DNA from: an uncultured Erysipelotrichaceae bacterium
Lineage (GTDB): Bacteria; Bacillota_I; Bacilli_A; RFN20; CAG-826
DNA length: 64,000 nucleotides
Assembly: GCA_947166565.1 (NCBI GenBank)
Contig: CAMVEL010000003.1
Span: 15,277 to 79,276, forward strand
Direction: 5' to 3'
Shown here: positions 2,540 to 29,481 of the stretch, one piece after another
Numbering within the stretch: position 1 is the first letter of the stretch
Layout of the letters: each line of letters opens with the position of its first letter
Notes under the pieces: generated by a model
Told to the model about the DNA's origin: nothing
Seen by the model: only the letters and a program-made list of their open reading frames with translations
The model's database searches: none
Translations under genes and position numbers: made by a program

Positions 2540-2565
2540 CTCGAGGCAATGGAGCACGATGCGGG
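2540..2565 (+). repeat. cassette-boundary repeat, copy A (core TGGAGCACGATGCGGG at 2550-2565; weak left arm with CTCGAG palindrome)
   Basis: Exact match to the 16-mer found 12 times in the window, all on the + strand. It is intergenic, 70 nt from the stop of the 2636-3928 gene. Confidence 0.7.
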
Positions 2566-2635
2566 CTGTGCTTAAAAATCAAGAAATCCGACGCGCCATT
2601 CATGCCACCATCGAAATTTTAAAAAGGTGGTGCGT

Positions 2636-3928
2636 TTATCCCATCAAGCTCCGGTCAAGAAGGAAATCGAATACTGAACAAAACAGGATTCCCGTTTCGT
2701 CTACATAAGGTTTTGGCGTTGATCGATCAATGACGATTCTTCTGCGGAAATCGCTTAGTCCTCGGAAGGGACGGACTTCCCGATCCCTCTTTTCCGGGTT
2801 GGAAACGTCGAGAGCGCTTTGGATGTATATTCTTCCGAAGGGCGTGTTGACGATAAAGTCGATTTCCGTGTCGACGCGAAGGGTTTTCCCACTCTCGTCC
2901 TTGGTGAAGAACTCCACAACCCCGACATCCGGTTTGAACCCACGGGCGCAGAGCTCGTTGAAGATGATGTTCTCCATGATGTGAGTTTCTTCCTGCTGGC
3001 GGAGATTGAGCCAACAATTCCGCAGCCCAACATCGGCGCAGTAATATTTGCTCGGATATTTGAAATACCGTTTCCTCTTCACATCGTAGCGGAGCGCTTC
3101 CACGAAAAGGAAGGAATCGACCGCCCCACGAAGATAGGAAGCGATCGTGTCATCCGTTATGCTGATGCCTTTGACCGATTTCATCGTGTTGGCGATCTTT
3201 GTGGGATTGGTCAAGCTCCCGACGGAAGAACAAAGATCGAGGATCAGTTCGCGCAGCGCATCGTCACGCTCGGCGGACACATATTCCTTTATGTCCTTCA
3301 AATACGTTTCCTCGAATAACCCAGCGAGGTATTTCCTTTTCTCCTCGTCGGTATCGCACCACGCAACGGCATAAGGCATACCCCCATAGGTGAAGAATTC
3401 GTTCCAGTCGCTGCGAACATCACTGTTTTTGTATTCGTGGAATTCGCGGAAGGTCAAAGGGGCCATCTCGACGATGTCGCCGCGGTCGCGAAACACTGTC
3501 GCGATATCTTTGGAGAGCATATAGGAATTGCTGCCCGTGACGTAAACGTCGAAATCGGGTTCGTCGCAATAATCGCTCAGGACGTCGTTGAACGTGATTT
3601 CGCCTCCGGCCAAATCTGGGTTCGGAACAGGGAGGCAAAGACCGATTTCATCGATGAAAAGGTATTTCTTGCCCAAGATTCGCGCGGCTCTTTCCTCGAT
3701 TTCCTCCCCAAGTTTGATCGGATTGCGGTATTTGGCGTCCTTCTTTTTGTTCAAAGAAAACGAGATGATGGATTCAGGGGCAACGCCGCTAGAAAGCAGA
3801 TAGTCGCGGTAGATCTTGTTCAGCAAATAGGATTTGCCCGACCTTCTAAGCCCGGTGATGACCTTGATTTTTCCGTTTCCGGCTTTCCGTTTTAATTGTT
3901 CCAGGTAATGATCTCTTTTGATTTCCAT
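2636..3928 (-). CDS. AAA+ ATPase of the AAA_14/DUF4143 type (COG1373-like)
   Basis: 430-aa ORF. Walker A reads GLRRSGKSYLL near the N-terminus and Walker B is LFIDEI. The C-terminal half is typical of DUF4143 proteins. It is a paralog of 6969-8273 and 24870-26174. Confidence 0.85.
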   Translation of the reverse strand: MEIKRDHYLEQLKRKAGNGKIKVITGLRRSGKSYLLNKIYRDYLLSSGVAPESIISFSLNKKKDAKYRNPIKLGEEIEERAARILGKKYLFIDEIGLCLPVPNPDLAGGEITFNDVLSDYCDEPDFDVYVTGSNSYMLSKDIATVFRDRGDIVEMAPLTFREFHEYKNSDVRSDWNEFFTYGGMPYAVAWCDTDEEKRKYLAGLFEETYLKDIKEYVSAERDDALRELILDLCSSVGSLTNPTKIANTMKSVKGISITDDTIASYLRGAVDSFLFVEALRYDVKRKRYFKYPSKYYCADVGLRNCWLNLRQQEETHIMENIIFNELCARGFKPDVGVVEFFTKDESGKTLRVDTEIDFIVNTPFGRIYIQSALDVSNPEKRDREVRPFRGLSDFRRRIVIDRSTPKPYVDETGILFCSVFDFLLDRSLMG

Positions 3929-4176
3929 AGTCGATACTTTTGTGTATTTACACGTAACTTTCGATTATATGATACTCTTTTGCTATGCAAATAGAAATAG
4001 GCGCCTCCAAAGAAAACGGAGCGTTTGGCAACGAAGCAAAGTATGGTCAAGCCACGATATCCTTTTATTTCGTCATTTATTTCGTCACCGCATGCCTTCT
4101 TTTGAGCGGTAAGGCGCGGCAGGCAAACGAAAAAAGAATCAACAAGGCAGTCGAAGCATACGGCGGTTATTCCCAT

Positions 4177-4364
4177 ATCGTGCTTAACGATTAAAGCACT
4201 CGATGCATATCGACGGAGCACTTCACCTGAATTTTTTGTAAGAGTTTAGACTATTACTTTCAAGCAAAATAAAAACAGCGAGTTTTTGTAACCCAAATGT
4301 AACCCATAAAAATATAAACAACCGATGGCATCGAGGGAATTTGGCTTTTGGAACGCGATGCGGG
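4177..4364 (+). repeat. cassette-boundary composite repeat, copy B
   Basis: Inverse core ATCGTGCTTAA at 4177-4187. Direct repeats GTAACCC-AAAT-GTAACCC at 4288-4305. Hairpin CGATGgCATCG at 4323-4333. Core TGGAACGCGATGCGGG at 4349-4364. About 75 nt are shared with copy F. Confidence 0.75.
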
Positions 4365-4480
4365 TCGTCCAACAAAGCATTTAGAGAATGGTTTTTCCTG
4401 AAAAAGAGCAAACAACATTTTAGCCAATTTTTTTATTTATTGGCTTGTATATGGCTTTTCTAGCAATTATGGGTTAGAAT

Positions 4481-5188
4481 ATGGCCATGGAAACGACACT
4501 GGCGAAAAAACAATTATCCAAGGCGATTCAGAAGGAAGCCGGGAAACCCATCAACGACTCCTCTTTCTTCGCACGGTTAAAAAAGAAGAGGGAGGCGGGC
4601 GAGCTCGTTCGGGTAGGAAAAGGCGTCTACGCGAAGTCGAACCTCCCCGTCTTCGATTACGAGCTCTTTTCGCCATCGGCAAAGGATGTCCACGTCTTTT
4701 TGATGGGAGAGTACCTCGGAAGGATCGAGTTCGCCGTCTATGAGGTCACAATACTCAATCGTTTCCTCAATCACCTCATCGCCGGCAGCACAACCATCGT
4801 CGACGTGCCTAAGGAGTTTTGTGAGAACATCTTCTACGCACTTCAGGACCGCGGCTTCCGAAATGTCCTCCTAAACCCAACCGAGGACGAGAACTACCGC
4901 TACAACCATAACGACGGGGAAACCATCATCGTCAAGGGAACCTCATCAAGATCGCCCATAGACAAGAAGAGAGGCAAGGTCCTTCTTGAAAAGCTGCTCG
5001 TCGACATCGTTTCCGACAAAAGACTTCGCTACTTCTTTGAGGGGGCGGAGACCGGTCCGGCCGTCGAGGAGATCGTCACGAGTTATTCGCTGGACTACGC
5101 CAAGATCCGCACTTACGCCAAAAGGCGGGGGTGCTATGAGAAGCTTCTCCAATACATCCCCGAGGAGGTCCGGAGGAAATACCTATGA
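4481..5188 (+). CDS. abiEi: AbiEi-like antitoxin (type IV TA; wHTH N-terminal domain)
   Basis: 235-aa ORF. The N-terminal L..KK.EAGELVRVGKGVYA motif is typical of AbiEi. Its stop overlaps the start of the AbiEii gene (ATGA at 5185-5188). Confidence 0.65.
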   Translation: MAMETTLAKKQLSKAIQKEAGKPINDSSFFARLKKKREAGELVRVGKGVYAKSNLPVFDYELFSPSAKDVHVFLMGEYLGRIEFAVYEVTILNRFLNHLIAGSTTIVDVPKEFCENIFYALQDRGFRNVLLNPTEDENYRYNHNDGETIIVKGTSSRSPIDKKRGKVLLEKLLVDIVSDKRLRYFFEGAETGPAVEEIVTSYSLDYAKIRTYAKRRGCYEKLLQYIPEEVRRKYL

Positions 5189-6243
5189 TCGATAAGAAAA
5201 CCTACACCGACGAGAACATCCAAAGGATCGTCGTAACATACAAAGTCGACTATGAACTCGCGCAGCGGGCCGTTTTCGCCTTGGGACTTGTGGAAGCACT
5301 CGTTCGAAGCGGACTCCAGTTCACCTTCAAAGGAGGGAGTTCGGCAATGCTCCTATTCCCCGCGCCAAAGCGGTTAAGCACGGACGTCGACATCCTCGTG
5401 GAGCCAGGGACCGAAGTGGAGAAGGCAATCAAAGACGCATCCGTCATCTTCCCTTTCCTTTCCTACGAGGAATCCATCCGCAAAACGAGCAAGTCCATTT
5501 CCAAGAAACATTTCAAAATAAAATACCAATCCCCACGAACCGGATATCCCGTCAATGTCATCGTTGACGTTCTCTTCGCGGAGAATCGGTATCCAAAACG
5601 GATCGCGTTGCCGTTGAAGAATGATTTCCTAATCGATGACGGAGGAGAGCCCGTCAAGGTCAATGTCCCCTGCCCCGAATGTCTCCTCGGTGACAAGCTG
5701 ACCGCCTTCGCCCCGCATACGATCGGCATCAACTTCTTCAACGAGGATTTCAGCAACGACAAGCGCCTTGAGGTAATCAAGCAATTCTTCGACGTCGCCA
5801 CGATATTTGACGCATGCGGTGACTTTTCCTTGGTGCGAGAAACATACATTGCCACGGCCAAGGACGAAATCGCGTATCGTAGCTTATCTGCTTCCTATGA
5901 AGATTGCTTAGACGATTCCTTCCGCGCCGCTTTATGCATCCTCACGTGGGGAAAATTCGAGACCGAAGACTATCCGAATTACGTTCAGGGATTCAAAAGC
6001 ATCTCCGGTCATATCGTCGGGATGAAACTCAACCCCAACAACGCCTACCTTCCCGCGGCGAAGATCATGCTCTTATGCGCTTGCATCAAGAAGAACATCA
6101 ATCCATTCGACCTTTCTATCGAAAAACAAGCCCTCTTTGAAGAGCTGCCATATTCGATGGTCAATCGGCTAGCCAAGCAAATGCCACAAGCCTTTGACCT
6201 GGCCGCGACCGCCATTCGCATCTACAACGGTTCCGAGCAATGA
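5185..6243 (+). CDS. abiEii: AbiEii/AbiGii-family nucleotidyltransferase toxin
   Basis: 352-aa ORF with FKGGSSAMLLF...RLSTDVDILV, the nucleotidyltransferase G-S and D.D motifs of AbiEii. It is translationally coupled to the upstream AbiEi-like gene. Confidence 0.8.
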   Translation: MIDKKTYTDENIQRIVVTYKVDYELAQRAVFALGLVEALVRSGLQFTFKGGSSAMLLFPAPKRLSTDVDILVEPGTEVEKAIKDASVIFPFLSYEESIRKTSKSISKKHFKIKYQSPRTGYPVNVIVDVLFAENRYPKRIALPLKNDFLIDDGGEPVKVNVPCPECLLGDKLTAFAPHTIGINFFNEDFSNDKRLEVIKQFFDVATIFDACGDFSLVRETYIATAKDEIAYRSLSASYEDCLDDSFRAALCILTWGKFETEDYPNYVQGFKSISGHIVGMKLNPNNAYLPAAKIMLLCACIKKNINPFDLSIEKQALFEELPYSMVNRLAKQMPQAFDLAATAIRIYNGSEQ

Positions 6244-6249
6244 AGCCCC

Positions 6250-6702
6250 ATGCAGAATAACGCCTCCAAAAAAGAATTCTATTCCGTCGATGGCGGCGTT
6301 CTTTCCCTTCGCCTCATTTAAACCGTAGAAGGCAGCGAGAACGGACTCCCCTTCTATTTGTGGTCCATCGTGTAAAACGCCAGCGGCGCTACCGTCGGGA
6401 AGATCAACCTTCGCCTCGGCCATAACTACCATTCCTACTGGAACGGCAACGTCGGTAATGAGGTCGGTGAGCCTTATCGTGGCCATCATTACGCCGCCAT
6501 TGCTTTGAAGATGATCCTTCCTTTGGCCCGGGCTCATGACATGGATCATCTCATTATTTCTTGTGATGAGGACAACGCCGCTTCGTACAAGACCATCGAA
6601 CGTTGCGGCGGCCACCTTCTCGAACTCTCATATCCGCCCAAAGATTGGATTTATTGCAGGCCCGGCCTTCCTCTGAAACGAATCTATCGAATCGAGTTTT
6701 GA
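6250..6702 (+). pseudogene. GNAT-family N-acetyltransferase (COG3981-like) interrupted by two in-frame TAA stops
   Basis: A single frame reads MQNNASKKEFYSVDGGVLSLRLI*TVEGSENGLPFYLWSIV*NASGATVGKINLRLGHNYHSYWNGNVGNEVGEPYRGHHYAAIALKMILPLARAHDMDHLIISCDEDNAASYKTIERCGGHL... The TAA stops are at 6319-6321 and 6373-6375. GNAT motifs are present on both sides of the stops. Confidence 0.7.
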
Positions 6703-6786
6703 TTTCTGGGAGGCCGACCTTTCTTGTTTGGTTTTGAAGCAGCAAATGAAGCAAGAAATGAAGCAAGAAAAAATAAGTGATTATTC

Positions 6787-6863
6787 GTAGGCTGAGTGTA
6801 AGTCAAGAAAACAAAAACCCTCGATATCATCGAGTGAATTTTGACGTTGGAGCACGATGCGGG
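6787..6863 (+). repeat. cassette-boundary composite repeat, copy C
   Basis: Degenerate direct repeats GTAGGCT-GAGT-GTAAGTC at 6787-6804. An A-rich tract follows. Hairpin CTCGAT-atc-ATCGAG at 6820-6834, then GAATTTT. Core TGGAGCACGATGCGGG at 6848-6863. Confidence 0.75.
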
Positions 6864-6968
6864 AGGTTCTAATGCGTTAAATGCGTATTTACAAGATATT
6901 ACTGGTCATTTTTTTGAGTTTTTCAATTTTCCTGACCTGTTATATTGCTTTTGCGAGTTCTCCAAAAA

Positions 6969-8273
6969 TTATAACCCCAAAAGGAAATCCGTAATGCCCA
7001 CCACATAGGTTCCATCTTGATTCCGGGTTTCGGGAATCGGGTCGCCAATCACAAGGACGTTTTTCGCTTCTCCGCGCACAAAATCAAATGGCCTGAGTTC
7101 TTTCTTCAGCACATTCGGATCGGTGACGCTTTGACAAATTTGAACGTAAAGAACTTCGTACCCTTTCCTCGCCACGAAATCGATTTCGTAATCCTTGCGC
7201 ACGCTTTTCCCGTCTTTATCCTTCCCAACCGTTGGAACCATGCCGACGCTTACCTGGTACCCATTGTATAGAAGTTCGTTATAGACGGCGTTTTCCATCA
7301 GCTGTCCGATGTCGGGGAATCCGAAGTTCAGTCTTGCGTTTCTTAATCCGGTATCGGTGAAATAGTACTTTCGCCCCGCCCCGATCAAAGATCTGCCTTT
7401 CACGTCATAGCGGGAGGCTTCCGAAAGGAGGAAAGCGTCGACGAAGGAATCGATGTAACTCTCCACCGTCTTCGGATCCAGCGATGTTTTGCCTGCGCTG
7501 CGGAGAGTATTTGCGATTTTCTCAACGGTGATGATTTTCCCGACCAAAGAGGACAAGGCGTCGGCCAATTCATCCAGTGCCCAATCCTTTTGGAACCCAT
7601 GATGCTCCAAGATGTCTTTGAAATAAGTCGTTTGGTAGAGCCCTTTTAGATACTCTTCTTTTCCACTTCGTTGTTTTAGGACCGCCAAAGGCATCCCTCC
7701 GTGGAGGAGATATTCGTAAAGAGCCTCCGACTTGGCCCCGCCGACATGGGCGTAGTACTCGGAAAACGAAAGTGGCGCCACGTGGATCTGGGTCGCCTTG
7801 TCGCGGAACTGGGTGACGATGTCACTGGAGAGCATGCGGGAATTGCTTCCCGTCACGTAAAGATCGATGTTTGCGACCGAGGCAAGTCCCATGACCACGT
7901 CGACGAAGGAAATCGTCTGGGGGTCCCCCTTCTTGGCTAGGACGATCTGTCCACCGGTCAGTTCGGGGTTGACGATTTCAAAGACTCGCTGGATCTCATC
8001 TAGGACAACATAAAGAGTGTCTTGCATCCCTTTTGCCTTTTCTCTGACAAAGGTACTGAGGGTTAAGGGGTTGCGCAGATTCGCGTTGGCGTCGTCGTCT
8101 AGTTCGACAAGAAGGAATTGTTCTTTTTTCACGCCCAAAGAGATTAAATGGCTTTTAAAGATCTCCTTAAGCAAATAGGATTTGCCGCAGCGACGAATGC
8201 CGGTAACGATCTTCGGGAATCCATTTCCCATGCCCATTATTAATTGACCTAAATACTTATCGCGGGGAATCAT
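6969..8273 (-). CDS. AAA+ ATPase of the AAA_14/DUF4143 type, duplicate copy 1
   Basis: 434-aa ORF. Walker A is GIRRCGKSYLL and Walker B is VVLDEI. It differs from 24870-26174 by one residue (T vs A near the C-terminus). Confidence 0.85.
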   Translation of the reverse strand: MIPRDKYLGQLIMGMGNGFPKIVTGIRRCGKSYLLKEIFKSHLISLGVKKEQFLLVELDDDANANLRNPLTLSTFVREKAKGMQDTLYVVLDEIQRVFEIVNPELTGGQIVLAKKGDPQTISFVDVVMGLASVANIDLYVTGSNSRMLSSDIVTQFRDKATQIHVAPLSFSEYYAHVGGAKSEALYEYLLHGGMPLAVLKQRSGKEEYLKGLYQTTYFKDILEHHGFQKDWALDELADALSSLVGKIITVEKIANTLRSAGKTSLDPKTVESYIDSFVDAFLLSEASRYDVKGRSLIGAGRKYYFTDTGLRNARLNFGFPDIGQLMENAVYNELLYNGYQVSVGMVPTVGKDKDGKSVRKDYEIDFVARKGYEVLYVQICQSVTDPNVLKKELRPFDFVRGEAKNVLVIGDPIPETRNQDGTYVVGITDFLLGL

Positions 8274-8345
8274 AACTTTCTCCTTTTTTGTAGAATTCTA
8301 CATTTTTCAGGAAAATTATAATGTCGTCTCCACGCTAGCGCAACG
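7015..8345. repeat. 1.33-kb near-identical duplicated segment (partner 24916-26246)
   Basis: The sense ORF and three antisense track ORFs (84, 66 and 79 aa) translate identically in the two copies. This implies nucleotide identity at synonymous sites too. Only a GT/AC difference was seen, at 8322-8323 vs 26224-26225. Homology ends abruptly at ...CACGCTAGCGCAACG. Confidence 0.85.
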
Positions 8346-8693
8346 GATTGCCTCGGACTCGTACCATTGACGGGCCTCTAAATCATCGATTGCCAGCAAT
8401 AAACGGTAATGGGACCAGCTGGCGAAAGATTGTTTATTCGCTGTGTAAAAAATGTTTGGATACGCCTTGAAGAACCTTAAATAGTAATAGAGGTTGACTT
8501 TGTCAAAGCCCTTTCCGAATTCCTTTGATAGCTCTTTTGAGAGGGTCTCGATGATCTCAAGGCCGTAGTTCTCTTTTCTGGAATCCTTCAGTTCCTCTTC
8601 GGCGATCGTGTTTCGGTGCCCGAGTAGTTCTCGTCCACCAAACTTTTTCGCGGAATTTAAGTAGGCGATGAGTAGTCCGCACTTCCGGAAAGA
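8342..8693 (-). pseudogene. N-terminal fragment of a DUF1016 (YhcG-like) nuclease gene; the PD-(D/E)xK C-terminal half is missing
   Basis: The reverse-strand frame reads ...LIAYLNSAKKFGGRELLGHRNTIAEEELKDSRKENYGLEIIETLSKELSKEFGKGFDKVNLYYYLRFFKAYPNIFYTANKQSFASWSHYRLLLAIDDLEARQWYESEAIR. It is collinear with residues ~105-215 of the intact paralog at 8860-10110. It breaks off exactly where the duplicated ATPase segment ends (8345). Confidence 0.65.
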
Positions 8694-8721
8694 TTAGCTG
8701 GCATTGAGCAAATTGAGGATA

Positions 8722-8737
8722 TGGTTCACGATGCGTG
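8722..8737 (+). repeat. cassette-boundary repeat, copy D (variant core TGGTTCACGATGCGTG)
   Basis: Matches the core consensus TGGWNCRCGATGCGGG. It has the same orientation as the other copies and is intergenic between the DUF1016 fragment and the intact DUF1016 gene. Confidence 0.6.
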
Positions 8738-8859
8738 GAGGTATCCAACAGGGCGACACGTTTTTTGGACGGCGCCCATTCTCCTGACTCTTCCGCAGTT
8801 TTCAACAGTCTTTTTTTATGCGGAAGGAAGCCCCGCCTCATCGTTTACGAAGCCACCGC

Positions 8860-10110
8860 TCAATCGTTTTCGTCTTTCCTCGTCAGCAGGAAGATGGCTT
8901 TTTGGCGCTCAATCTCGTTTCTAAGTTCCGTCTCGTCCGGCATGTATGTTTTGTATTTCGCCGCGAAGATCTGCTCGTTTCCCTTAAGCACGCTATAACG
9001 GGCGATGTCCTCATCGGTCTCCGCGCACAAAAGGATTCCGAGCGTAGGATTGTCACCCGCGCCCTTGATCCTCTCGTCATACATGCGGACGTACATATCC
9101 ATCTGCCCGACGTCCTGGTGTTCGATCTTCTTGGCCTTGAGGTCGACGAGCACGAAACAGCGGAGGAAGTAATTGTAGAAAACGAGGTCGACGTAGTAGT
9201 CCTTCTTCTCCGTGTGGATCCTCTTTTGCCTTGCGACGAAGGCATAACCCTTCCCCATTTCGAGCAGGAACTGCGCCAAATGGTCGATGATGGCCTGCTC
9301 GAGTTCCGTCTCGTCGGGCCGTTCCGGATTCGGCAAACCGAGGAATTCCGCCACGAAAGGGTTCTTCACGTACTCAAGCGGATCCTTTGAGGGAGCGATT
9401 CCCTGGGGCAGCGCAGGCATGCTGCCACTTTGGGTGGAGAGCAGTCTTTCGTAGTATTGGCTATGGATCGCCCGCTGCAGGTCGCGGACGCTCCAGCCAG
9501 AGGCAAGCGCCTCCTTTTCGTAATAGGGCCTTGCCACATCGCTATCGACGCGGATCAATAAAGTATAATGAGACCATGAGAGGAAAGAATTTCCAGACGG
9601 CGTTTGGAAAATGTTAGGAAAAAGCCTATAGAAACGAACATAGGTATAAAGGCTGGATTTGTCGAATCCGCTTCCGAATCTTTCGGTCAAAAACGCCGAT
9701 AGCTTCTTGATAATCGACTTCCCGTAGTCGTTGGCTCTCGTCGAGAGGATCTCCTCGTCAATGCGCTTGCCGATTAGATGGTTTCGTCGCAATAGTGCGA
9801 TATTGATAGCACGCACTGCATCCTGCTTCGATGCCTCGACGATGGCGGAAACATCGGCGGAGACGTCCCCGGACTTGGACACCGAGAAAGCGGGAATAGC
9901 GTTCATCTGATTGCCGGCGACGATTTCCTCATAAAGCGCGTTGACCTTCGCCGCCGTTTCGTAATTGGGACCGAAATGTCCGTTCTCCAATCTGTTGACC
10001 GTGGAGAAGCTGACGCCCAGACGCTTTGCCATATCGGTTTGCGACAGTCCGAGCGCCATGCGGACCGCGATAAGTTTTTCTTTGAATTCCATGAAAGAAT
10101 TATATCGCAT
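8860..10110 (-). CDS. XRE-type HTH fused to a DUF1016 (YhcG-like) PD-(D/E)xK nuclease
   Basis: 416-aa ORF. The N-terminal LGLSQTDMAKRLGVSFSTVNRLENG is an XRE HTH. The middle SWSHYTLLIRV...ARPYYEKEA is the YhcG N-domain. The C-terminal region YYVDLVFYNYFLRCFVLVDLKAKKI carries the nuclease core. The start may be the internal Met at 10092. Confidence 0.8.
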   Translation of the reverse strand: MRYNSFMEFKEKLIAVRMALGLSQTDMAKRLGVSFSTVNRLENGHFGPNYETAAKVNALYEEIVAGNQMNAIPAFSVSKSGDVSADVSAIVEASKQDAVRAINIALLRRNHLIGKRIDEEILSTRANDYGKSIIKKLSAFLTERFGSGFDKSSLYTYVRFYRLFPNIFQTPSGNSFLSWSHYTLLIRVDSDVARPYYEKEALASGWSVRDLQRAIHSQYYERLLSTQSGSMPALPQGIAPSKDPLEYVKNPFVAEFLGLPNPERPDETELEQAIIDHLAQFLLEMGKGYAFVARQKRIHTEKKDYYVDLVFYNYFLRCFVLVDLKAKKIEHQDVGQMDMYVRMYDERIKGAGDNPTLGILLCAETDEDIARYSVLKGNEQIFAAKYKTYMPDETELRNEIERQKAIFLLTRKDEND

Positions 10111-11242: not shown

Positions 11243-11262
11243 GCTATCTCCCCTACTTATCC

Positions 11263-22406: not shown

Positions 22407-22447
22407 AACAAAATCTATTCTACATACCAAAGAAAAAAAGAGGTAGA

Positions 22448-22474: not shown

Positions 22475-22521
22475 TCGCCAACCGAGAATTTGTTCACTAT
22501 TTTTCCCAAATAAGGATAGAG

Positions 22522-23073
22522 TCAATCCTTCAAACCTATGAGCGCTTTATCGATCTCCGAATAGATGGCATCGTACTCCTCCATAGATACGATAACGGAC
22601 GGAATCCAAAAGGAGCGAAGGCTCTCCAACGCTTCGTCACCGCCGAACAGCGTTTTTGCTTTGAAGTATGCAACTTGGTTCGCATCGATTTCGTGTGGTT
22701 GGGAAAGGTATAGCCTCGTGAAGCGATCCTCTCCACCATCGAGGCGGCATGAAGTCCATTCACCATTGACCCTTTTCGAGCAATTCCCATCATAGGCGAT
22801 ATCGTAATCCAAGGCCTTGCGGATGGCGGGAGGGAAACGCTCGGGATGGGCAAACTGCTCCGCGTGCCGAAGTTCGTGGAAAAGATAGAAGGCCTTCTCA
22901 GAATCAGGGCATTCCTTAAGCAATGTGGCGTTCATGAAAACGGTATCCGTTTCCGGGTCGTACATGCCGTTTGCTTCCTCGTAACCCTCGGGCATGTCAA
23001 AAGATAGGCGACAGACAAGCCCTGCCTCCAGGCACGAAGAATCGAATAAGGCGCGATAATCAAAATCGGGCAT
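22522..23073 (-). CDS. HExxH-motif protein (putative zinc-metallopeptidase-like), family not recognised
   Basis: 183-aa ORF with AFYLFHELRHAEQ (HExxH). There is a 12-nt gap to the upstream ATPase gene, so the two are likely co-transcribed. Confidence 0.45.
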   Translation of the reverse strand: MPDFDYRALFDSSCLEAGLVCRLSFDMPEGYEEANGMYDPETDTVFMNATLLKECPDSEKAFYLFHELRHAEQFAHPERFPPAIRKALDYDIAYDGNCSKRVNGEWTSCRLDGGEDRFTRLYLSQPHEIDANQVAYFKAKTLFGGDEALESLRSFWIPSVIVSMEEYDAIYSEIDKALIGLKD

Positions 23074-23085
23074 TGCGTTTATCTC

Positions 23086-24459
23086 CTAGAGCAAATACGC
23101 CATGTAACAAGGAAGCGCGACGATTCCGTCGGGACGGACGAAGAGGTTCTTTGGGTGCAGGATGAAGGCTCCCCCGATCCTCGCCTTGAATTTAGCGACG
23201 AACCGCGTCAAGGAGACATTCGCGTAATTCTTCGAGGACTTCACCTCGATGGGGAAAATCTTGGGTCTTGTCTTGCTTCCGTTGGAAAGGATGAAGTCGA
23301 TCTCGATGTCGTTGCGCTTCTTCTCCTCGCTGTAATGGGTGTAGAAATAAAGCTTATGGCCGCTCGCGACGAGCATTTGGGCGATGGCGTTTTCGTAAAG
23401 CATGCCTTCATTGACGGACAGCTTTCCGGACAGGATGGAAGCGTATACTTCCTCCGCGATCAGCTCGTTTTCGTCAAAGGCATGGGAAACAAGCAGGCCC
23501 GTATCCCCCATATAGCATTTCACCGCCGCCCGGGATTCATTGAGGGACAGCCCGACATTGGGGTCCGAGCAGGCGAAGCACTCATTGCAGATCATGGAAT
23601 CCGCGAGCCAGAAAAAGGTCTCCTCGTATTCGGGGTAATTCGTGTCCGATTCAACGCTGCGAAGCCTCACCCTCTTCTCATGCATCGAGAGGAACGAGGG
23701 GATCTGATCGAATATGGAAAGGACCTTGGCTTTGTATTGGGCGTCGGTCTTCATGATGTCGTCGCGGTAATTCACGAGGATGTCCCTTTTCTCCGCGTCG
23801 CAATCGGCGAATTGTTTGCGGGCGAGCAGGAATTTGGATAGCGCCTTGGGCATGCCGCCGACCAGCATGTACTGCTTGAACAGCATCATGGCCCTTTCGT
23901 GAAGTCCGCGCTCCAACGGAATTCTCTTTTCAAAGCAATCCCGGATATAGGGAAGCAATTGTTCTTCCCCTAAGGCCCAAACAAATTCCTCAAAGTCCAT
24001 GGGGTACATCTTGATCTTCCTCTCCTCACTGGGGATCGTGATGCCCTGGACGTTTTGCTTGATGGAGATCAAAGAGCCCGTCTCGATGAAATCGTAACGT
24101 CCGTCCGCGACGAGGTATTTGATGGCCTCCCTGGCCTTTGGATAAGCCTGAACCTCGTCAAAGATGATGAGGCTTTCGCGCGGATAGAGCGTCTTCCCAT
24201 AGGCGGCGGAAAGCACCATGAAAAAGGTATCAAGCTTTTCTAGATTATCGCGGAAGTTATCGAACACGATGCTGCCTGCCTTGTTGAAATCGATGAGGAT
24301 GTAGGAACGGTAATGGGCTTTGGCGAATTCCTCGACCGCCGTGGATTTGCCAATACGCCTAGCCCCCTCGATGAGTAAGGCCTTCTCGCCTTTTGTTTCA
24401 TTCTTCCACTTGAGTAGCTTTTCGTTGATTTTTCTTTTGAAAATGATTTCCGGTTCCAT
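23086..24459 (-). CDS. AAA+ ATPase, divergent AAA_14/DUF4143-type (COG1373-like)
   Basis: Walker A is GARRIGKST and Walker B is LIIFDEVQ. The C-terminal IEIDFIL...PIEVKSS motif is consistent with a PD-(D/E)xK-like DUF4143 end. The start was trimmed to ATG 24459 (MEPEIIFKRK), which is preceded by TAAGGAGA. Confidence 0.8.
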   Translation of the reverse strand: MEPEIIFKRKINEKLLKWKNETKGEKALLIEGARRIGKSTAVEEFAKAHYRSYILIDFNKAGSIVFDNFRDNLEKLDTFFMVLSAAYGKTLYPRESLIIFDEVQAYPKAREAIKYLVADGRYDFIETGSLISIKQNVQGITIPSEERKIKMYPMDFEEFVWALGEEQLLPYIRDCFEKRIPLERGLHERAMMLFKQYMLVGGMPKALSKFLLARKQFADCDAEKRDILVNYRDDIMKTDAQYKAKVLSIFDQIPSFLSMHEKRVRLRSVESDTNYPEYEETFFWLADSMICNECFACSDPNVGLSLNESRAAVKCYMGDTGLLVSHAFDENELIAEEVYASILSGKLSVNEGMLYENAIAQMLVASGHKLYFYTHYSEEKKRNDIEIDFILSNGSKTRPKIFPIEVKSSKNYANVSLTRFVAKFKARIGGAFILHPKNLFVRPDGIVALPCYMAYLL

Positions 24460-24467
24460 GGGATTCT

Positions 24468-24552
24468 CCTTAAAACGCAAAGTAATAATAGTAAAATTCG
24501 TCTTAAAACGCAATGTATCTAATCATGATTATCTCCTTAAAACGCAAGGTAT
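24468..24552 (-). repeat. three direct copies of TTGCGTTTTAAG(GAGA) at 33-35 nt spacing in the ATPase leader
   Basis: The + strand shows CCTTAAAACGCAAAGTA (24468-24484), TCTTAAAACGCAATGTA (24501-24517) and CCTTAAAACGCAAGGTA (24536-24552). Copies 1 and 3 include an SD-like AAGGAGA. Copy 3 is followed by a 7-codon mini-ORF (MIRYIAF*). Confidence 0.6.
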
Positions 24553-24680
24553 CTGTTCCGCGACGAGCTACGATATCGTCACAACAAAAACAATCGGTGT
24601 TCGATTGTCAGGAAGCACGATTAGAAGCCCGTTTTGCTCGTTCTTTGAAACACAATCTTATCTCCAGAAAAAATGTCGAA

Positions 24681-24763
24681 TTTTTGTAACCCAAATGTAA
24701 CCCACAAAAATAAAAAACCTCGATGGCATCGATGGAATTAAGGCAACTGGATTGCGATGCGGG
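24681..24763 (+). repeat. cassette-boundary composite repeat, copy F
   Basis: The element reads TTTTTGTAACCC-AAAT-GTAACCCA, then an A-rich tract, then hairpin TCGAT-ggc-ATCGA and GAATTA. Core TGGATTGCGATGCGGG at 24748-24763. It is the same sub-family as copy B. A further core-like GGAAGCACGATT lies at 24611-24622. Confidence 0.75.
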
Positions 24764-24869
24764 AAGTTCTTATGCATTTAACGCCTATTTGTACGGTATT
24801 GCTGGTCATTTTTTAGAGTTTTTTGATTTTTTTTGACCTGTTATATTGCTTTTGCGAATTCTCCAAAAA

Positions 24870-26174
24870 TCATAACCCCAGAAGGAAATCCGCAATGCCC
24901 ACCACATAGGTTCCGTCTTGATTCCGGGTTTCGGGAATCGGGTCGCCAATCACAAGGACGTTTTTCGCTTCTCCGCGCACAAAATCAAATGGCCTGAGTT
25001 CTTTCTTCAGCACATTCGGATCGGTGACGCTTTGACAAATTTGAACGTAAAGAACTTCGTACCCTTTCCTCGCCACGAAATCGATTTCGTAATCCTTGCG
25101 CACGCTTTTCCCGTCTTTATCCTTCCCAACCGTTGGAACCATGCCGACGCTTACCTGGTACCCATTGTATAGAAGTTCGTTATAGACGGCGTTTTCCATC
25201 AGCTGTCCGATGTCGGGGAATCCGAAGTTCAGTCTTGCGTTTCTTAATCCGGTATCGGTGAAATAGTACTTTCGCCCCGCCCCGATCAAAGATCTGCCTT
25301 TCACGTCATAGCGGGAGGCTTCCGAAAGGAGGAAAGCGTCGACGAAGGAATCGATGTAACTCTCCACCGTCTTCGGATCCAGCGATGTTTTGCCTGCGCT
25401 GCGGAGAGTATTTGCGATTTTCTCAACGGTGATGATTTTCCCGACCAAAGAGGACAAGGCGTCGGCCAATTCATCCAGTGCCCAATCCTTTTGGAACCCA
25501 TGATGCTCCAAGATGTCTTTGAAATAAGTCGTTTGGTAGAGCCCTTTTAGATACTCTTCTTTTCCACTTCGTTGTTTTAGGACCGCCAAAGGCATCCCTC
25601 CGTGGAGGAGATATTCGTAAAGAGCCTCCGACTTGGCCCCGCCGACATGGGCGTAGTACTCGGAAAACGAAAGTGGCGCCACGTGGATCTGGGTCGCCTT
25701 GTCGCGGAACTGGGTGACGATGTCACTGGAGAGCATGCGGGAATTGCTTCCCGTCACGTAAAGATCGATGTTTGCGACCGAGGCAAGTCCCATGACCACG
25801 TCGACGAAGGAAATCGTCTGGGGGTCCCCCTTCTTGGCTAGGACGATCTGTCCACCGGTCAGTTCGGGGTTGACGATTTCAAAGACTCGCTGGATCTCAT
25901 CTAGGACAACATAAAGAGTGTCTTGCATCCCTTTTGCCTTTTCTCTGACAAAGGTACTGAGGGTTAAGGGGTTGCGCAGATTCGCGTTGGCGTCGTCGTC
26001 TAGTTCGACAAGAAGGAATTGTTCTTTTTTCACGCCCAAAGAGATTAAATGGCTTTTAAAGATCTCCTTAAGCAAATAGGATTTGCCGCAGCGACGAATG
26101 CCGGTAACGATCTTCGGGAATCCATTTCCCATGCCCATTATTAATTGACCTAAATACTTATCGCGGGGAATCAT
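24870..26174 (-). CDS. AAA+ ATPase of the AAA_14/DUF4143 type, duplicate copy 2
   Basis: 434-aa ORF identical to 6969-8273 except for one residue (IADFLLGL vs ITDFLLGL). Confidence 0.85.
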   Translation of the reverse strand: MIPRDKYLGQLIMGMGNGFPKIVTGIRRCGKSYLLKEIFKSHLISLGVKKEQFLLVELDDDANANLRNPLTLSTFVREKAKGMQDTLYVVLDEIQRVFEIVNPELTGGQIVLAKKGDPQTISFVDVVMGLASVANIDLYVTGSNSRMLSSDIVTQFRDKATQIHVAPLSFSEYYAHVGGAKSEALYEYLLHGGMPLAVLKQRSGKEEYLKGLYQTTYFKDILEHHGFQKDWALDELADALSSLVGKIITVEKIANTLRSAGKTSLDPKTVESYIDSFVDAFLLSEASRYDVKGRSLIGAGRKYYFTDTGLRNARLNFGFPDIGQLMENAVYNELLYNGYQVSVGMVPTVGKDKDGKSVRKDYEIDFVARKGYEVLYVQICQSVTDPNVLKKELRPFDFVRGEAKNVLVIGDPIPETRNQDGTYVVGIADFLLGL

Positions 26175-26246
26175 AACTTTCTCCTTTTTTGTAGAATTCT
26201 ACATTTTTCAGGAAAATTATAATACCGTCTCCACGCTAGCGCAACG
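24916..26246. repeat. 1.33-kb near-identical duplicated segment (partner 7015-8345)
   Basis: See the partner entry. The ~150 bp to the left (24764-24915 vs 6864-7014) are homologous but visibly diverged, with many substitutions and indels. Confidence 0.85.
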
Positions 26247-26315
26247 CAGCGCATCACTTGTTTTATAAGTGTTCTTTTTTTAATTGCTTTATTGCAATTA
26301 AATGGCAATTTTTAG

Positions 26316-26434
26316 ATAGTGCTCTACAAGAAAAAGTTCGAAATTCGTGCGGTAATCGTGCGGTGAATAAACGTATCTATGAAAAAAGTCCCGACGGCGC
26401 CGAGACAATTTCCTTTGGTGGAACACGATGCGTG
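26316..26434 (+). repeat. cassette-boundary composite repeat, copy G (sub-family G/J/K/L)
   Basis: Inverse core ATAGTGCTCTA at 26316-26326. It is followed by CGTGCGG-TAAT-CGTGCGG, then hairpin GTCCCGACGGCGCCGAGAC and AATTT. Variant core TGGAACACGATGCGTG at 26419-26434. Confidence 0.75.
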
Positions 26435-26628
26435 TACAAGGTCAAACGTTTTTGCTCATTGAACACATTTATAAAAGAGCGGTTTTTTTGCATTTTTTAA
26501 TTTTCCGCTCACTTATGAACATTTTCTTTTTGCATTATGGGTAGTGTGAGTGCGAAAGTGGCGTCCGCAAAAGAATCGGTTCAATGCCGTGGGAAATCCC
26601 TCGGGGTTCCTTGATTCAAATCGCGATA

Positions 26629-26786
26629 ATCGTCGCGTTCCGACACGCTTTAAAAGAGGAATGATGATTCCTGAAGATTTTCGTCCACCATAAAAAGCGC
26701 GAAATATAAGTGGGCGATTAATGGGCCGGGTTTTTGAAAAAGTTCGACCGTATCGGATAAATTTTGGTCATGGTTCACGATGCGGG
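26629..26786 (+). repeat. cassette-boundary composite repeat, copy H (sub-family H/I)
   Basis: Inverse-core-like ATCG(TCG)CGTTCC at 26629-26641. It is followed by TGGGCGA-TTAA-TGGGCCG, then TTTTTGAAAAAGT and CGACCGTATCGG, then AAATTTT. Core TGGTTCACGATGCGGG at 26771-26786. About 110 nt align with copy I. Confidence 0.7.
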
Positions 26787-26821
26787 TACAAGGTCAGCCG
26801 AAATATGCGCTCACCGGTAAA

Positions 26822-27031
26822 TTAGTTCCAGGATATCGCGAGGCGCTTGCCACTTCTCGCGCAGTCCGTCAGATAGAGGTTGATGAGCGTTTGATACGGT
26901 ATGCCGGTATCCTTCGCCTGCGCCTTGAAATAGGCGATTGCGTCCTCGGAGAGTTTAATCGTCACCTGCTTCTTGAGTTGCTTGGCGTAGGGGTTCTTCT
27001 TCCCTTTGCTGAAATCGTATTCTTCCCTCAT
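26822..27031 (-). CDS. brnA: BrnA-type antitoxin
   Basis: 69 aa from ATG 27031 (MREEYDFSKGKKNPYAKQLKKQVTIKLSEDAIAYFKAQAKDTGIPYQTLINLYL...), the typical BrnA pattern. It starts 10 nt after the BrnT stop. The longer track ORF (to 27232) overlaps BrnT and is rejected. Confidence 0.75.
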   Translation of the reverse strand: MREEYDFSKGKKNPYAKQLKKQVTIKLSEDAIAYFKAQAKDTGIPYQTLINLYLTDCARSGKRLAISWN

Positions 27032-27041
27032 GTTCCTTTCC

Positions 27042-27326
27042 TCACCTTCTGTAATGGCTCGCTTCGTTCCTTGTGGCTTTCCTGGCCGAGATAATCCGAA
27101 TGACGCCTTCGTTGTCCCTGTAGCAATGGCAGACGACGAGGATCCTCGCGTTGGCGCTGAAGCCGAGGATGACGAAGCGATCCTCAGTCTCGGAATTGTC
27201 CGGATCCGAGATGACCAGGGCGGCATCGTCATAGAATACCGTCTTGGCCTCCTCGAAGCTCACGCCATGCTTGCTCAAATTGGACTTGGCCTTCCTTTCA
27301 TCCCACTCGAAACGTAACTCTTTCAT
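27042..27326 (-). CDS. brnT: BrnT-type toxin (DUF497 ribonuclease)
   Basis: 94-aa ORF, MKELRFEWDERKAKSNLSKHGVSFEEAKTVFYD...ISARKATRNE. This is the canonical BrnT/DUF497 N-terminal FEWD..K...N..KHGV motif. Confidence 0.8.
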   Translation of the reverse strand: MKELRFEWDERKAKSNLSKHGVSFEEAKTVFYDDAALVISDPDNSETEDRFVILGFSANARILVVCHCYRDNEGVIRIISARKATRNEASHYRR

Positions 27327-27390
27327 ACTTATATTATAATTATAATCAACCGTTTTTCAAGGTTGTACGTTCTATCTTCACGCTTTTTTC

Positions 27391-27546
27391 GACGTGCTTC
27401 AGACTAGCGCAAACGTGAGATAAATGGTGGCTTAAGTTTTTCGTCCACCATAATAAATGCGATTTTTAAATGGGCGATAAATGGGGCAGATTTTTGAAAA
27501 AGTCCGACCGTATCGGATAAATTTTGGTCATGGTTCACGATGCGAG
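27391..27546 (+). repeat. cassette-boundary composite repeat, copy I (sub-family H/I)
   Basis: Inverse-core-like GACGTGCTTCA at 27391-27401. It is followed by TGGGCGA-TAAA-TGGGGCA, then TTTTTGAAAAAGT and CGACCGTATCGG, then AAATTTT. Variant core TGGTTCACGATGCGAG at 27531-27546. Confidence 0.7.
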
Positions 27547-27551
27547 AAATG

Positions 27552-27914
27552 CTATTTTTTAAGCCAGAATTTCTTCCCCTTCGTCGCTTTGCCGTTGTTC
27601 TCAACGGTCCCGGATGCACAGATTTCCTTTAAGGCAAGGCTAACCGTGGCATTGTTCACGGAAAGCGTTTTTGCCAACTCGGTCACGCTTGCCTCTCCGA
27701 GTTCGGCCAAAGTATGGATGATCTTCGTCTCCAAATCCGGGGTATTCGTGATCAGATTCTGAGTCATCAAAAAGACCAATGTGGTTCGGGACGGGGCGCT
27801 CGACTGTTCCAAAATGGGGTCCGGAAAGCCCAAAGCGCGCATTCTCCGATAAATGTTTGGGACGCCTTCGCCCGCTTTGTCGCCGATCCTCGCGAGATGG
27901 AGCAGGTTCATCAC
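27552..27914 (-). pseudogene. C-terminal remnant of an AlbA_2/HATPase_c_4-type ('RecG-like') putative regulator
   Basis: The 120-aa ORF begins abruptly in ...ARIGDKAGEGVPNIYRRMRALGFPDPILEQ... and ends with a wHTH-like segment (IIHTLAELGEASVTELAKTLSVNNATV). Full-length relatives carry ~300 more N-terminal residues. No ORF continues upstream. Confidence 0.45.
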
Positions 27915-28042
27915 CCCCTCGTTCCTTGGGTCGCTGTCGCTACAACAACCGATTCATTAATTCATTATTTATTCGTTAGAAAAAACTGTTTTTCATTAAC
28001 AATGTCTAATGAATGGCTGAAAAGGCGCATGGAAATACAGAA

Positions 28043-28160
28043 ATAATGCTCCAAACTTTTTCCATCGAAATCCGTGCGGTAATCGTGCGGGGAAATGTAC
28101 TCTTTTGAAAGAAAACGCCGAATACATCGAGTTTCTAAGACTCGTGGAGCGCGATGCGGG
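28043..28160 (+). repeat. cassette-boundary composite repeat, copy J
   Basis: Inverse core ATAATGCTCCA at 28043-28053. It is followed by CGTGCGG-TAAT-CGTGCGG and a hairpin region GCCGAATACATCGAG. Core TGGAGCGCGATGCGGG at 28145-28160. Confidence 0.75.
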
Positions 28161-28335
28161 AAAACCGTCATAGCAAAGCTGCGATTGCCTGTTTAACGGG
28201 ACAAATTCGCAATATTTTATACTTTTGTCCTGTTATTTCATGTTTACGTAACCTATAGGGCCAATGGATAAGCGCTCTTCTTGAGCCTCTACTACACAAG
28301 CCCATTTATAGAAAACTCTCCCTATAATTATTCCG

Positions 28336-28454
28336 ATAGTGCTCTATTAGAAAAAACGGCAAATCCGTTCGGTAATCGTGTGGTAAATAAGCGTACTTAC
28401 GAAAATAGCCTCAATGCCGTCGATACTATTTTGGCTGTTGGAGCGCGATGCGGG
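28336..28454 (+). repeat. cassette-boundary composite repeat, copy K
   Basis: Inverse core ATAGTGCTCTA at 28336-28346. It is followed by CGTTCGG-TAAT-CGTGTGG. ACGGCA on the left is complementary to TGCCGT in the right arm. A TATTTT box follows. Core TGGAGCGCGATGCGGG at 28439-28454. Confidence 0.75.
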
Positions 28455-28555
28455 CGCTGCTCTGCGGATTAACCGTTTCTTATATATAAATGTGCTCATA
28501 CATATTGTTCGTAATGCGTTTGTCTTTATAATGTAATCGAAAGGAGACAGATAAT

Positions 28556-28849
28556 ATGGAACTCATACAAGTCAGGGTCGATTCCGAGACCAAAGCGGCC
28601 GCCGCAAGTCTTTTCGAAGCCCTTGGCATGGACATCTCCACCGCCGTAAGATCCTTCCTCAAGAAGGCCATCGCCGAAGGAGGAATGCCCTTCGACATGA
28701 AGTTGGACGATTCCACCCGGCGCGCCCTTGTCGCCGTCCGCTCCATGAGAGAGACCTCCGAGGCTAACGGTAACTCAGAGATGACCCTCGAGGAGGTCAA
28801 CGATGAGATTGCAAAGGCAAGGAGGGAAAGGAAGGCTCGCAAGCGATAA
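28556..28849 (+). CDS. RelB/DinJ-family antitoxin
   Basis: 97-aa ORF with AAGGAGA upstream. The N-terminus IQVRVDSETKAAAASLFEALGMDISTAVRSFLKKAI..GGMPF is the ribbon-helix-helix DinJ/RelB signature. Confidence 0.8.
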   Translation: MELIQVRVDSETKAAAASLFEALGMDISTAVRSFLKKAIAEGGMPFDMKLDDSTRRALVAVRSMRETSEANGNSEMTLEEVNDEIAKARRERKARKR

Positions 28850-29264
28850 AGCGGTGCTATGCCGTCGTCGACACCAACGTGCTCGTCTCCTCCATGCTGA
28901 AAAGCGAATCGATACCCGGGCAGGTCGTGGATCTGATCCTGTTAGGCAAAATCGTCCCGCTTCTCAACGAGGAGATCATCGCCGAATACGAAGACGTCCT
29001 CACGAGAAACAAATTCGGCTTCGAGGAGGGGAAGCCCGAAGCGCTCATCGCCAGCTTAAGGGAAAAGGCCATCTTCCTGCCGAGGGAGCACACCGAAGAA
29101 GCTTTCCAGACGAAGACGACATCGTCTTCTTCGAAATCGCGCTCAGCGGGCGCTCCACGATGGATGCGTACCTCGTCACGGGAAACCTGAAGTACTACCC
29201 CGTCAGAAGTTACGTCGTCACGCCACGGCAGATGCTTGAGATCATCGAGGGCGACCCGGATTAA
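28849..29264 (+). pseudogene. PIN-domain (PIN_3-type) toxin gene, frameshifted and lacking a usable start
   Basis: The N-terminal part (..YAVVDTNVLVSSMLKSESIPGQVVDLILLGKIVPLLNEEIIAEYEDVL...LPREHTEEAF) and the C-terminal part (FPDEDDIVFFEIALSGRSTMDAYLVTGNLKYYPV...) lie in different frames. They join at GCTTTCCAGAC (29101-29111). No ATG, GTG or TTG precedes the conserved DTNV Asp in the N-terminal frame after the stop at 28804. Confidence 0.7.
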
Positions 29265-29362
29265 CTCAGGCGTCCGTTCATATTGCTTGGTGACGAAAAA
29301 CGGATATCGCGCACCGCCTCGGCCACCATCAAAACATCGTCAACGCAAATCCCACTCCCATG

Positions 29363-29481
29363 ATAGCGCGCCAACCAAAATGCCTCGAAAATCGTGGTAA
29401 TATCGCGAGACAAATTCTTCAAAAATCAAAAAAAGTGCCGATAGCATCGACACTTTTTTCACATATGGAGCACGATGCGGG
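29363..29481 (+). repeat. cassette-boundary composite repeat, copy L (last copy, abutting core genes)
   Basis: Inverse core ATAGCGCGCCA at 29363-29373. It is followed by ATCGTGG-TAAT-ATCGCGA and an A-run. A 9-bp hairpin AGTGCCGAT-agc-ATCGACACT follows, then TTTTTT. The exact core TGGAGCACGATGCGGG is at 29466-29481. Confidence 0.75.

Follow-up and report, generated by a model that had tools for sequence, protein, structure and literature searches.

The DNA analysed here, referred to as the window, is a stretch of 64,000 nucleotides (positions 15,277 to 79,276 of contig CAMVEL010000003.1, assembly GCA_947166565.1) from an uncultured Erysipelotrichaceae bacterium. Its left part carries an array of small gene cassettes separated by copies of a 16-bp core, and the nature of this core and of the cassettes between its copies is the subject of this study. 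An earlier interpretation made from the letters alone (the sequence-only reading) had seen here twelve co-oriented copies of a recombination site of unknown kind. When the window was searched with TGGAGCACGATGCGGG, allowing up to three mismatches, twelve matches were obtained, all on the + strand and starting at 2550, 4349, 6848, 8722, 22459, 24748, 26419, 26771, 27531, 28145, 28439 and 29466, whereas dinucleotide-preserving shuffles gave 0.41 matches on average and never more than 2. All copies were thus found where they had been reported and in the one orientation reported, with start-to-start spacings of 1799, 2499, 1874, 13737, 2289, 1671, 352, 760, 614, 294 and 1027 bp. TGG and CGATGCG are the truly invariant parts in 12 of the 12 window cores, in agreement with the invariance earlier ascribed to CGATGCG, which is also kept in most related sites outside the window. 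The consensus given at that time, TGGWNCRCGATGCGGG, fits just eight of the twelve copies; the variant core ends are GTG at 8722 and 26419 and GAG at 27531, and a T occupies the 'C' position in the core at 24748. A degenerate thirteenth copy does exist, but it is better aligned at about 10416–10431 (GGAATCACGAAGCGGG) than at 10407, where it had been placed. A profile hidden Markov model of the ~140-nt unit described below detected no further unit beyond the array copies on either strand of the 64 kb. The guanine-plus-cytosine (GC) content of the array measured 45–50%, which does not agree with the low-GC host assumed earlier.

The identity of the core became evident from its reverse complement, CCCGCATCGTGCTCCA, which is built like the 3' end of a tRNA, with five bases of the T-stem 3' strand, seven of the acceptor 3' strand, U73 and CCA. 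On the rumen metagenome contig L134, a tRNA-Gly(ccc) gene at 290–363 on the minus strand ends in 16 nt that match the core exactly, and this gene is directly followed by a left arm of family A' (see below) that is 84% identical to window positions 6771–6864. Cores #1, #3, #5 and #12 are perfect copies of the tRNA-Gly(CCC) 3' end, and at core #12 the identity to the tRNA-Gly gene spans 20 nt (TGGAGCACGATGCGGGAATC), the longest of all copies. Judged by this sequence match, the core is an antisense copy of the terminal 16 nt of tRNA-Gly(CCC), and the idea of an unknown type of site is thereby refuted. The 3' end of a tRNA gene is a classic docking site for integrating DNA, and this identity places the system with tRNA-directed integration and tandem accretion rather than in a new site class. 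The sequence-only reading had itself named a tRNA 3' end flanked by integrases as the sign of ordinary island accretion; the tRNA 3' end was found, whereas integrases beside the copies were not. The contigs of the tRNA-Gly locus stop at the tRNA, so that the view past the real gene is limited to one arm; L190, the second contig of the L134 tRNA locus, ends within the T-loop of the same tRNA, as is expected of an assembly interrupted by a repeat. When viral contigs were scanned for the 16-mer, only scattered chance matches came up, including the 3' end of a tRNA-Gly(ccc) gene on the unrelated high-GC viral contig L028, which ends in the core-type 16-mer TGGAGCGCGATGCGGG, like cores #10 and #11. 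No Rfam families were found in the window. As a separate observation, the family B repeats introduced below (minus strand; 26338–26367, 28065–28094 and 28358–28387) contain GCACGATTA, identical to the 9 nt with which the tRNA-Gly(CCC) gene begins, and the family B arm thus holds copies of the 5' strand of the acceptor stem besides the 3' strand present in the core.

The conserved element is considerably larger than the 16 bp originally proposed: it extends over ~140 bp leftward, core included, and over another ~100 bp rightward. Alignment of the flanks revealed a left arm of ~125 nt that is homologous at all sites and makes up, together with the core, the whole unit of ~140 nt. On the + strand, an inverted and partial core (TCGTCCACCA, TAGTGCTCTA or GTCTCCAG, for instance) is followed within the left arm by an A/T-rich stretch and by two direct repeats of 8 bp with a phasing of 11 bp; next come an A-run, a short hairpin and the motif gAATTT, which is separated from the core by ~8 nt. 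The phased repeats fall into the families A (GTAACCCAAATGTAACCCA), A' (GTAGGCTGAGTGTAAG), B (GTGCGGTAATCGTGCGG), C (GTGGGCGATTAATGGGC) and D (GGTGGTAAAAAGGTGGTAA). On the minus strand, which is the tRNA-sense strand, the hairpin is followed by a T-run and has the look of an intrinsic terminator, and each of its outer three stem pairs shows compensatory changes in 7–8 of 21 sequences. The right arm (~100 nt) occurs in three families, R1 (ctgtgcttaaaaatcaag), R2 (a/gagttcttatgcatttaacgcc) and R3 (tacaaggtca), and these are common to cassettes with unrelated genes. Core #1 shares its R1 arm (2566–2697) with the left-boundary core of the array on the related contig L117, the two sites being 89% identical. 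It is also evident that the left half of the core tracks the left-arm family, TGGTTCACG occurring with family C in five of six sites. In addition, the variable bases of the core pair weakly with the right flank as a small hairpin. A constant CGATGCG next to a left half that varies with the arm family is the pattern expected of an overlap region between binding half-sites, and the phased repeats and the inverted partial core are probably protein-binding sites. A sigma-54 promoter or another regulatory motif was considered and rejected, as the spacing is wrong and the cores lie mostly downstream of minus-strand genes. The alignments thus demonstrate what the core is, how the arms are built and that such an arm is present behind a real tRNA-Gly gene.

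Repeats resembling those of the left arms were also met elsewhere. The unrelated viral contig L197 (29% GC) contains three tandem GTAACCCAAAT iterons at 12040–12075 with the same sequence as the arm repeats of family A; as both are of the iteron type of binding site, the agreement is probably coincidental. In this lineage, as seen on contig L008 (634–2991 and 9841–9889), a promoter-like motif of two phased repeats (TGTGGCACTTTTGTGGCA, then a TAATAT-like box) stands before tandem small zinc-ribbon genes, and a variant of this motif, GTTGCACTTTTGTGCGC, precedes the S41 peptidase gene of the window at 29590–29615, with an architecture resembling the phased repeats of the left arm.

Comparison with related strains showed the cores to be breakpoints. 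Contig L224 is 93.5% identical to window positions 19387–22475 and continues at 94.6% identity with 26767–27361, so that the BrnA/BrnT cassette, which in the window stands behind core #8, is here joined straight to core #5. L224 is without window positions 22475–26770 (4.3 kb, comprising cores #6 to #8 and three cassettes); the difference is exact from core to core, and the switch lies within the core. As the arms at #5 and #8 are non-homologous, the two junctions have nothing but the 16-bp core in common. Such a length is too short for RecA-dependent recombination, which favours a site-specific over a homologous process. On L184, homology with the left arm of core #8 (91%) stops at 26786 and that to the right arm of core #6 (94%) starts at 24755, which places the switch inside CGATGCGGG; the cassette order also differs from that of the window, an R3 cassette standing ahead of an R2 cassette. 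A DUF4143 cassette with a family B arm, as in cassette 6 of the window, was found on L225 with another right neighbour. In terms of the sequences compared, these results show core-to-core presence and absence as well as re-assortment between strains, and the earlier suggestion of cassettes bounded by cores and subject to gain, loss and permutation, the breakpoints falling within the core, is borne out by the L224 deletion and the L184 re-assortment.

The positions of the cores, arms and cassettes are listed in Table 1. The cassettes measure 0.3–2.5 kb, and their gene content is largely as described before: four DUF4143 ATPases (PADLOC candidate PDC-S01), AbiEi/AbiEii, XRE-DUF1016 (PADLOC candidate PDC-S02), BrnT/BrnA, RelB with a weak PIN match and a winged-helix protein were all recognised, whereas the gene taken for a GNAT acetyltransferase (6169–6615) gave no family match.

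Table 1. Cores, arms and cassettes of the array in the window (aa, amino acids; ORF, open reading frame)
Feature	Positions	Strand	Remarks
Core #1	2550–2565	+	perfect copy; left boundary type, no left arm
Cassette 1	2566–4257	-	DUF4143 AAA ATPase 2636–3928 (PADLOC PDC-S01); 109-aa ORF 3892–4221
Left arm and core #2	4258–4364	+	arm family A (GTAACCCAAATGTAACCCA, hairpin); core TGGAACGCGATGCGGG
Cassette 2	4365–6763	+	AbiEi 4481–5188; AbiEii 5185–6243; 148-aa ORF 6169–6615 (minus strand)
Left arm and core #3	6764–6863	+	arm family A' (like tRNA-side arm of L134); core perfect
Cassette 3	6864–8612	-	right arm R2; DUF4143 ATPase 6969–8273
Left arm and core #4	8613–8737	+	arm family C (distal inverted partial core TCGTCCACCA); core TGGTTCACGATGCGTG
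Cassette 4	8738–10290	-	XRE-DUF1016/YhcG PD-(D/E)XK nuclease 8860–10110 (PADLOC PDC-S02)
13th site	10291–10431	+	arm family D GGTGGTATGAGGATGGTATGG, homologous to that of L117; eroded core GGAATCACGAAGCGGG ~10416–10431
12-kb block	10432–22458		STAS/anti-sigma kinase; radical SAM-SPASM; LytTR-type two-component pair; sugar ABC (ATP-binding cassette) transporter
Core #5	22459–22474	+	perfect; truncated left arm before core
Cassette 5	22475–24627	-	DUF6782-like HExxH protein 22522–23073 (just below Pfam cut-off); DUF4143 ATPase 23086–24513
Left arm and core #6	24628–24763	+	arm family A; core TGGATTGCGATGCGGG
Cassette 6	24764–26290	-	right arm R2; DUF4143 ATPase 24870–26174
Left arm and core #7	26291–26434	+	arm family B (GTGCGGTAATCGTGCGG; minus-strand terminator hairpin 26406–26388); core TGGAACACGATGCGTG
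Cassette 7	26435–26664		empty; right arm R3 only
Left arm and core #8	26665–26786	+	arm family C; core TGGTTCACGATGCGGG
Cassette 8	26787–27413	-	right arm R3; BrnA 26822–27232; BrnT 27042–27326
Left arm and core #9	27414–27546	+	arm family C; core TGGTTCACGATGCGAG
Cassette 9	27547–28026	-	winged-helix (MarR/ArsR-like) regulator remnant 27552–27914
Left arm and core #10	28027–28160	+	arm family B; core TGGAGCGCGATGCGGG
Cassette 10	28161–28325		empty
Left arm and core #11	28326–28454	+	arm family B; core TGGAGCGCGATGCGGG
Cassette 11	28455–29345	+	RelB antitoxin 28556–28849; PIN-like ORF 28803–29264 (weak match)
Left arm and core #12	29346–29485	+	arm family B-like (strong bidirectional terminator 29427–29461); right array boundary

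The DUF4143 genes of cassettes 3 and 6 (434 aa each) are 100% identical over ~1.33 kb (7000–8330 versus 24900–26230), and the identity of the two cassettes falls to 97%, 80% and ~65% toward and past the core. A decay of identity in the outward direction suggests recent gene conversion between paralogous cassettes. The genes of the 12-kb block are ordinary-looking accessory or chromosomal ones, and the right end of the block is linked to a core in three genomes (the window, L224 and L189); the block may represent either one very large cassette or a piece of chromosome that lies between two arrays. Within it (11660–16647), the radical SAM/SPASM enzyme lies beside a 68-aa ORF (13073–13279) with faint similarity to Nif11/bacteriocin leaders and is adjoined by a 418-aa protein without family match and a His_kinase/response-regulator pair, possibly a cluster for a ribosomally synthesised and post-translationally modified peptide. 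On L189 a 434-aa ORF with rve-type DDE transposase motifs (1537–2841) lies between the ABC-transporter ATPase gene and an intact left arm with core, a position held in the window by a 210-aa membrane protein. Outside the array, three consecutive large ORFs at 41284–49316 (1037, 850 and 789 aa) had no Pfam match.

With regard to the genomic context, the relatives are labelled as uncultured rumen Erysipelotrichaceae or Bacilli metagenome-assembled genomes. Three proteins of the window were looked up for exact matches, and none was recorded. A metagenome scan for a hairpin arm followed by a core gave at least nine genuine loci with window-like GC and arms; about 95% of the loci among the matches listed were chance matches in high-GC genes. 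Arrays of two to three cores with similar cargo are present on the rumen contigs L074, L117, L165 and L184, and the cargo of related arrays includes DUF234-type ATPases, Schlafen/AlbA_2 proteins, an AAA_21 and TOPRIM pair and a methylase fragment. The last copy in the window had been proposed to mark the border with housekeeping genes, and core #12 indeed lies beside an S41 peptidase gene. In strain L001 (91–96% identity) no array is found upstream of this gene, the end of an M13-type peptidase gene being there instead, and homology to the window resumes at ~29527–29538, about 45–56 bp to the right of core #12. No cores were found near the S41 peptidase gene in 13 related genomes. The closest DUF4143 homologues in relatives (83–87%) stand alone among housekeeping genes without cores, and the ABC-transporter neighbourhoods of more distant relatives (81%) contain variable defence genes and no cores. 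Two further observations concern the surroundings of the array. A three-gene ABC transporter (substrate-binding protein, permease and ATPase) at 32094–34766 is absent from L001, which is 91–96% identical on both sides of the gap; this is a clean indel unrelated to cores. To the left of core #1, positions 1–2549 have ~40% GC as compared with 47% elsewhere and encode a DUF5677 fragment, an HD-domain phosphohydrolase-like protein (phrog_990) and a phrog_4031-like protein, and another mobile element may end here, directly beside core #1.

Several known systems share part of these properties. In the ssrA islands of Dehalococcoides, more than 12 direct repeats of the ssrA 3' end stand in tandem and vary between strains, with extra conservation around the repeat; the islands are ~10 kb or larger and lie up to 100 kb downstream of an intact ssrA, 16 of 31 carry a serine-recombinase module, and units without an integration module were read as cis-mobilizable elements (McMurdie et al. 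2011, PMC3146451). The window resembles these islands in its tRNA-like 3'-end direct repeats, its tandem, strain-variable units and the conservation beyond the repeat, but differs from them in that the cassettes are 0.3–2.5 kb long, none has a recombinase and the array is not beside a tRNA gene. Cis-mobilizable elements (CIMEs) are defined in the same paper as att-flanked DNA without recombination genes of its own, in tandem at a shared site and dependent on the integrase of another element (PMC3146451). In these respects the array, as interpreted below, is like CIMEs and like the accretion of integrative and conjugative or integrative and mobilizable elements (ICEs, IMEs) in streptococci. However, a CIME is usually a single decayed element beside a functional ICE, whereas here at least 12 stand in a row with both arms well conserved; no ICE or IME is in view in the window. 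Tycheposon islands of Prochlorococcus consist of stacked tRNA-targeted elements separated by partial tRNA copies, with more partial tRNAs scattered inside and adaptive or defensive cargo; tycheposons encode replication modules together with large tyrosine recombinases, and full-length tRNA genes are found next to the islands (Hackl et al., bioRxiv 10.1101/2020.12.28.424599). The stacking of tRNA-targeted elements, the partial tRNA copies between them and the adaptive or defence cargo are found here too, in contrast to the large recombinases, the replication modules and the adjoining tRNA genes.

Integron arrays, including clusters of attC sites lacking integrases, are similar in having co-oriented sites, mostly single-gene cassettes, many toxin-antitoxin genes and no integrase in view. 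Unlike integrons, the window has no IntI-type or Phage_integrase domain, inspection of the sites gave no RYYYAAC/GTTRRRY cores, and folding of the 12 sites as attC-like DNA yielded z-scores of -1.8 to +1.5 without a site-spanning hairpin; instead of an attC there is a tRNA 3' end with lambda-like arms. The absence of integron-type attC sites, anticipated by the sequence-only reading, is thus supported by both the missing cores and the non-significant folding. Each cassette brings a terminator, and probably promoters, of its own. Elements dependent on Xer, such as integrative mobile elements exploiting Xer and pdif modules, were rejected, the core being non-palindromic and all copies co-oriented; an Xer/dif site is a 28-bp imperfect palindrome of 11-6-11 structure, and pdif modules alternate in orientation. 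Among the features of accretion at tRNA genes, direct repeats of the 3' end and strain breakpoints located in the repeat were both found in the window comparisons; an intact tRNA gene at the array end was seen only in L134, and no integrase was seen in or beside the elements of the window or of related arrays. Relative to the precedents, the 0.3–2.5-kb scale, the lack of a recombinase over 13 sites and ~25 cassettes, the conserved bipartite arms and the positions off the tRNA gene set the array apart, the cassette-like miniaturisation and the distance from a tRNA gene being unusual. Of the cassette-array idea as first formulated, the layout delimited by recombination sites stands and the new class of recombination site does not.

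We favour, with moderate confidence, the reading that the array is a head-to-tail series of att-flanked mini-elements that are not autonomous and depend for their movement on an integrase encoded elsewhere. Each junction is an attP-like composite of one cassette's right arm, the core and the left arm of the neighbouring cassette. In the scheme that we infer, a circular cassette would carry right arm, core and left arm as an attP of ~250 bp. A recombinase supplied in trans would swap strands within CGATGCG(GG) between any two cores. It would most likely be a tRNA-targeting tyrosine integrase, because the core is a tRNA 3' end and the phased repeats resemble arm-type sites. The circle would integrate at a resident core, either that of the tRNA gene or any core of an array, and two resident cores would allow excision of the DNA lying between them. 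On integration at the gene, the terminator of the left arm would replace that of the tRNA, as is usual for such elements.

A number of results weigh against this reading. Pfam searches of essentially all sizeable ORFs of the window gave no integrase, resolvase or transposase domain, and ARAGORN (tRNA and tmRNA) found no tRNA gene in the 64 kb, so that the earlier statement that recombinase and tRNA are both missing from the window is correct. Likewise, ~25 cassettes on related contigs contained no recombinases. Scans of IMG/VR for core variants and arm repeats returned only chance matches, and a full site had no BLAST match in collections of plasmids and phages; with the arms absent from all these collections, no autonomous parent element is known. 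Neither a circular form nor an empty attB was observed. The rightmost core of the window adjoins the S41 peptidase gene and not tRNA-Gly, and the complete two-cassette array of L117, flanked by rsmI and yfhO, lacks a tRNA gene as well as a recombinase; such positions beside housekeeping genes mean that the arrays are not simple accretions at a tRNA gene and that other chromosomal sites are occupied. Finally, several internal cores (e.g. TGGTTCA...) would be harmful to the tRNA if they came to stand at its gene, which fits arrays that serve as landing pads away from it.

The lack of an integrase, in the window as well as in the related cassettes examined, would also be expected if the array were a fossil, that is, the inert remains of tRNA-Gly-targeting islands from which integrases and most cargo were deleted, with cores as scars and nothing moving today. 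The empty units (26435–26664 and 28161–28325), the truncated arms at #1 and #5 and the eroded thirteenth core agree with such decay, and scattered partial tRNAs and integrase-less tandem islands are known from the tycheposon and Dehalococcoides ssrA islands. We nevertheless regard this explanation as unlikely. The core-to-core indel is clean between strains only ~6% diverged, arms have been re-assorted exactly at the core, and CGATGCG is invariant in the 12 window cores while the adjoining core positions vary. Moreover, arms of ~125 and ~100 bp are conserved around unrelated cargo, which suggests selection for function.

The small co-oriented cassettes rich in toxin-antitoxin and defence genes could also point to a dedicated, integron-like platform, in which promoter-bearing cassettes of one gene each are captured at a platform site by a resident recombinase encoded at one end of the array, past the left window edge. 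R1 is present at both known left boundaries (core #1 of the window and L117), and just 2.5 kb of DNA, foreign-looking and of 40% GC, separates core #1 from the left end of the window. This arrangement appears quite unlikely to us, however, as integron cores are missing and attC-like single-strand folding is not significant (see above), as the L117 array is seen whole between housekeeping genes without a recombinase, and as the site, being a tRNA 3' end, is of the kind that ordinary integrases typically use. That a ~140-bp tRNA-derived unit spreads alone, like a miniature inverted-repeat transposable element (MITE) or a short interspersed element, the cassettes being incidental, is highly improbable: inverted partial cores do bound the unit, giving imperfect terminal inverted repeats (e.g. 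TCGTCCACCA ... TGGTTCACGA), the unit occurs on many contigs and a DDE transposase ORF lies beside it in one related contig (L189), but all copies within the 64 kb are in one orientation and clustered in the array, strain differences remove whole cassettes from core to core and not single units, and the unit is natively found downstream of a true tRNA gene (L134).

If only a fossil, the array would be a well-preserved but ordinary case of island accretion and decay. Under the favoured reading of mini-elements moved in trans, a wider picture is possible, and we offer it tentatively: rumen Bacilli may maintain an integron-like economy that uses another chemistry and in which non-autonomous single-gene defence or toxin-antitoxin cassettes, each with an attP of ~250 bp, are moved by a trans-acting integrase among several landing pads off the tRNA gene, R1 founder cassettes seeding the arrays. 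If the cassettes are actively exchanged, they would represent a second, integron-independent route to arrays of single-gene defence and toxin-antitoxin modules, in which ordinary tRNA-directed site-specific recombination has been shrunk to cassette scale. The breaks of metagenome assemblies of this rumen lineage at these loci would also be accounted for in this way, and the conserved arms would then provide a handle for recovering both the variable defence repertoire of the lineage and the integrase responsible.

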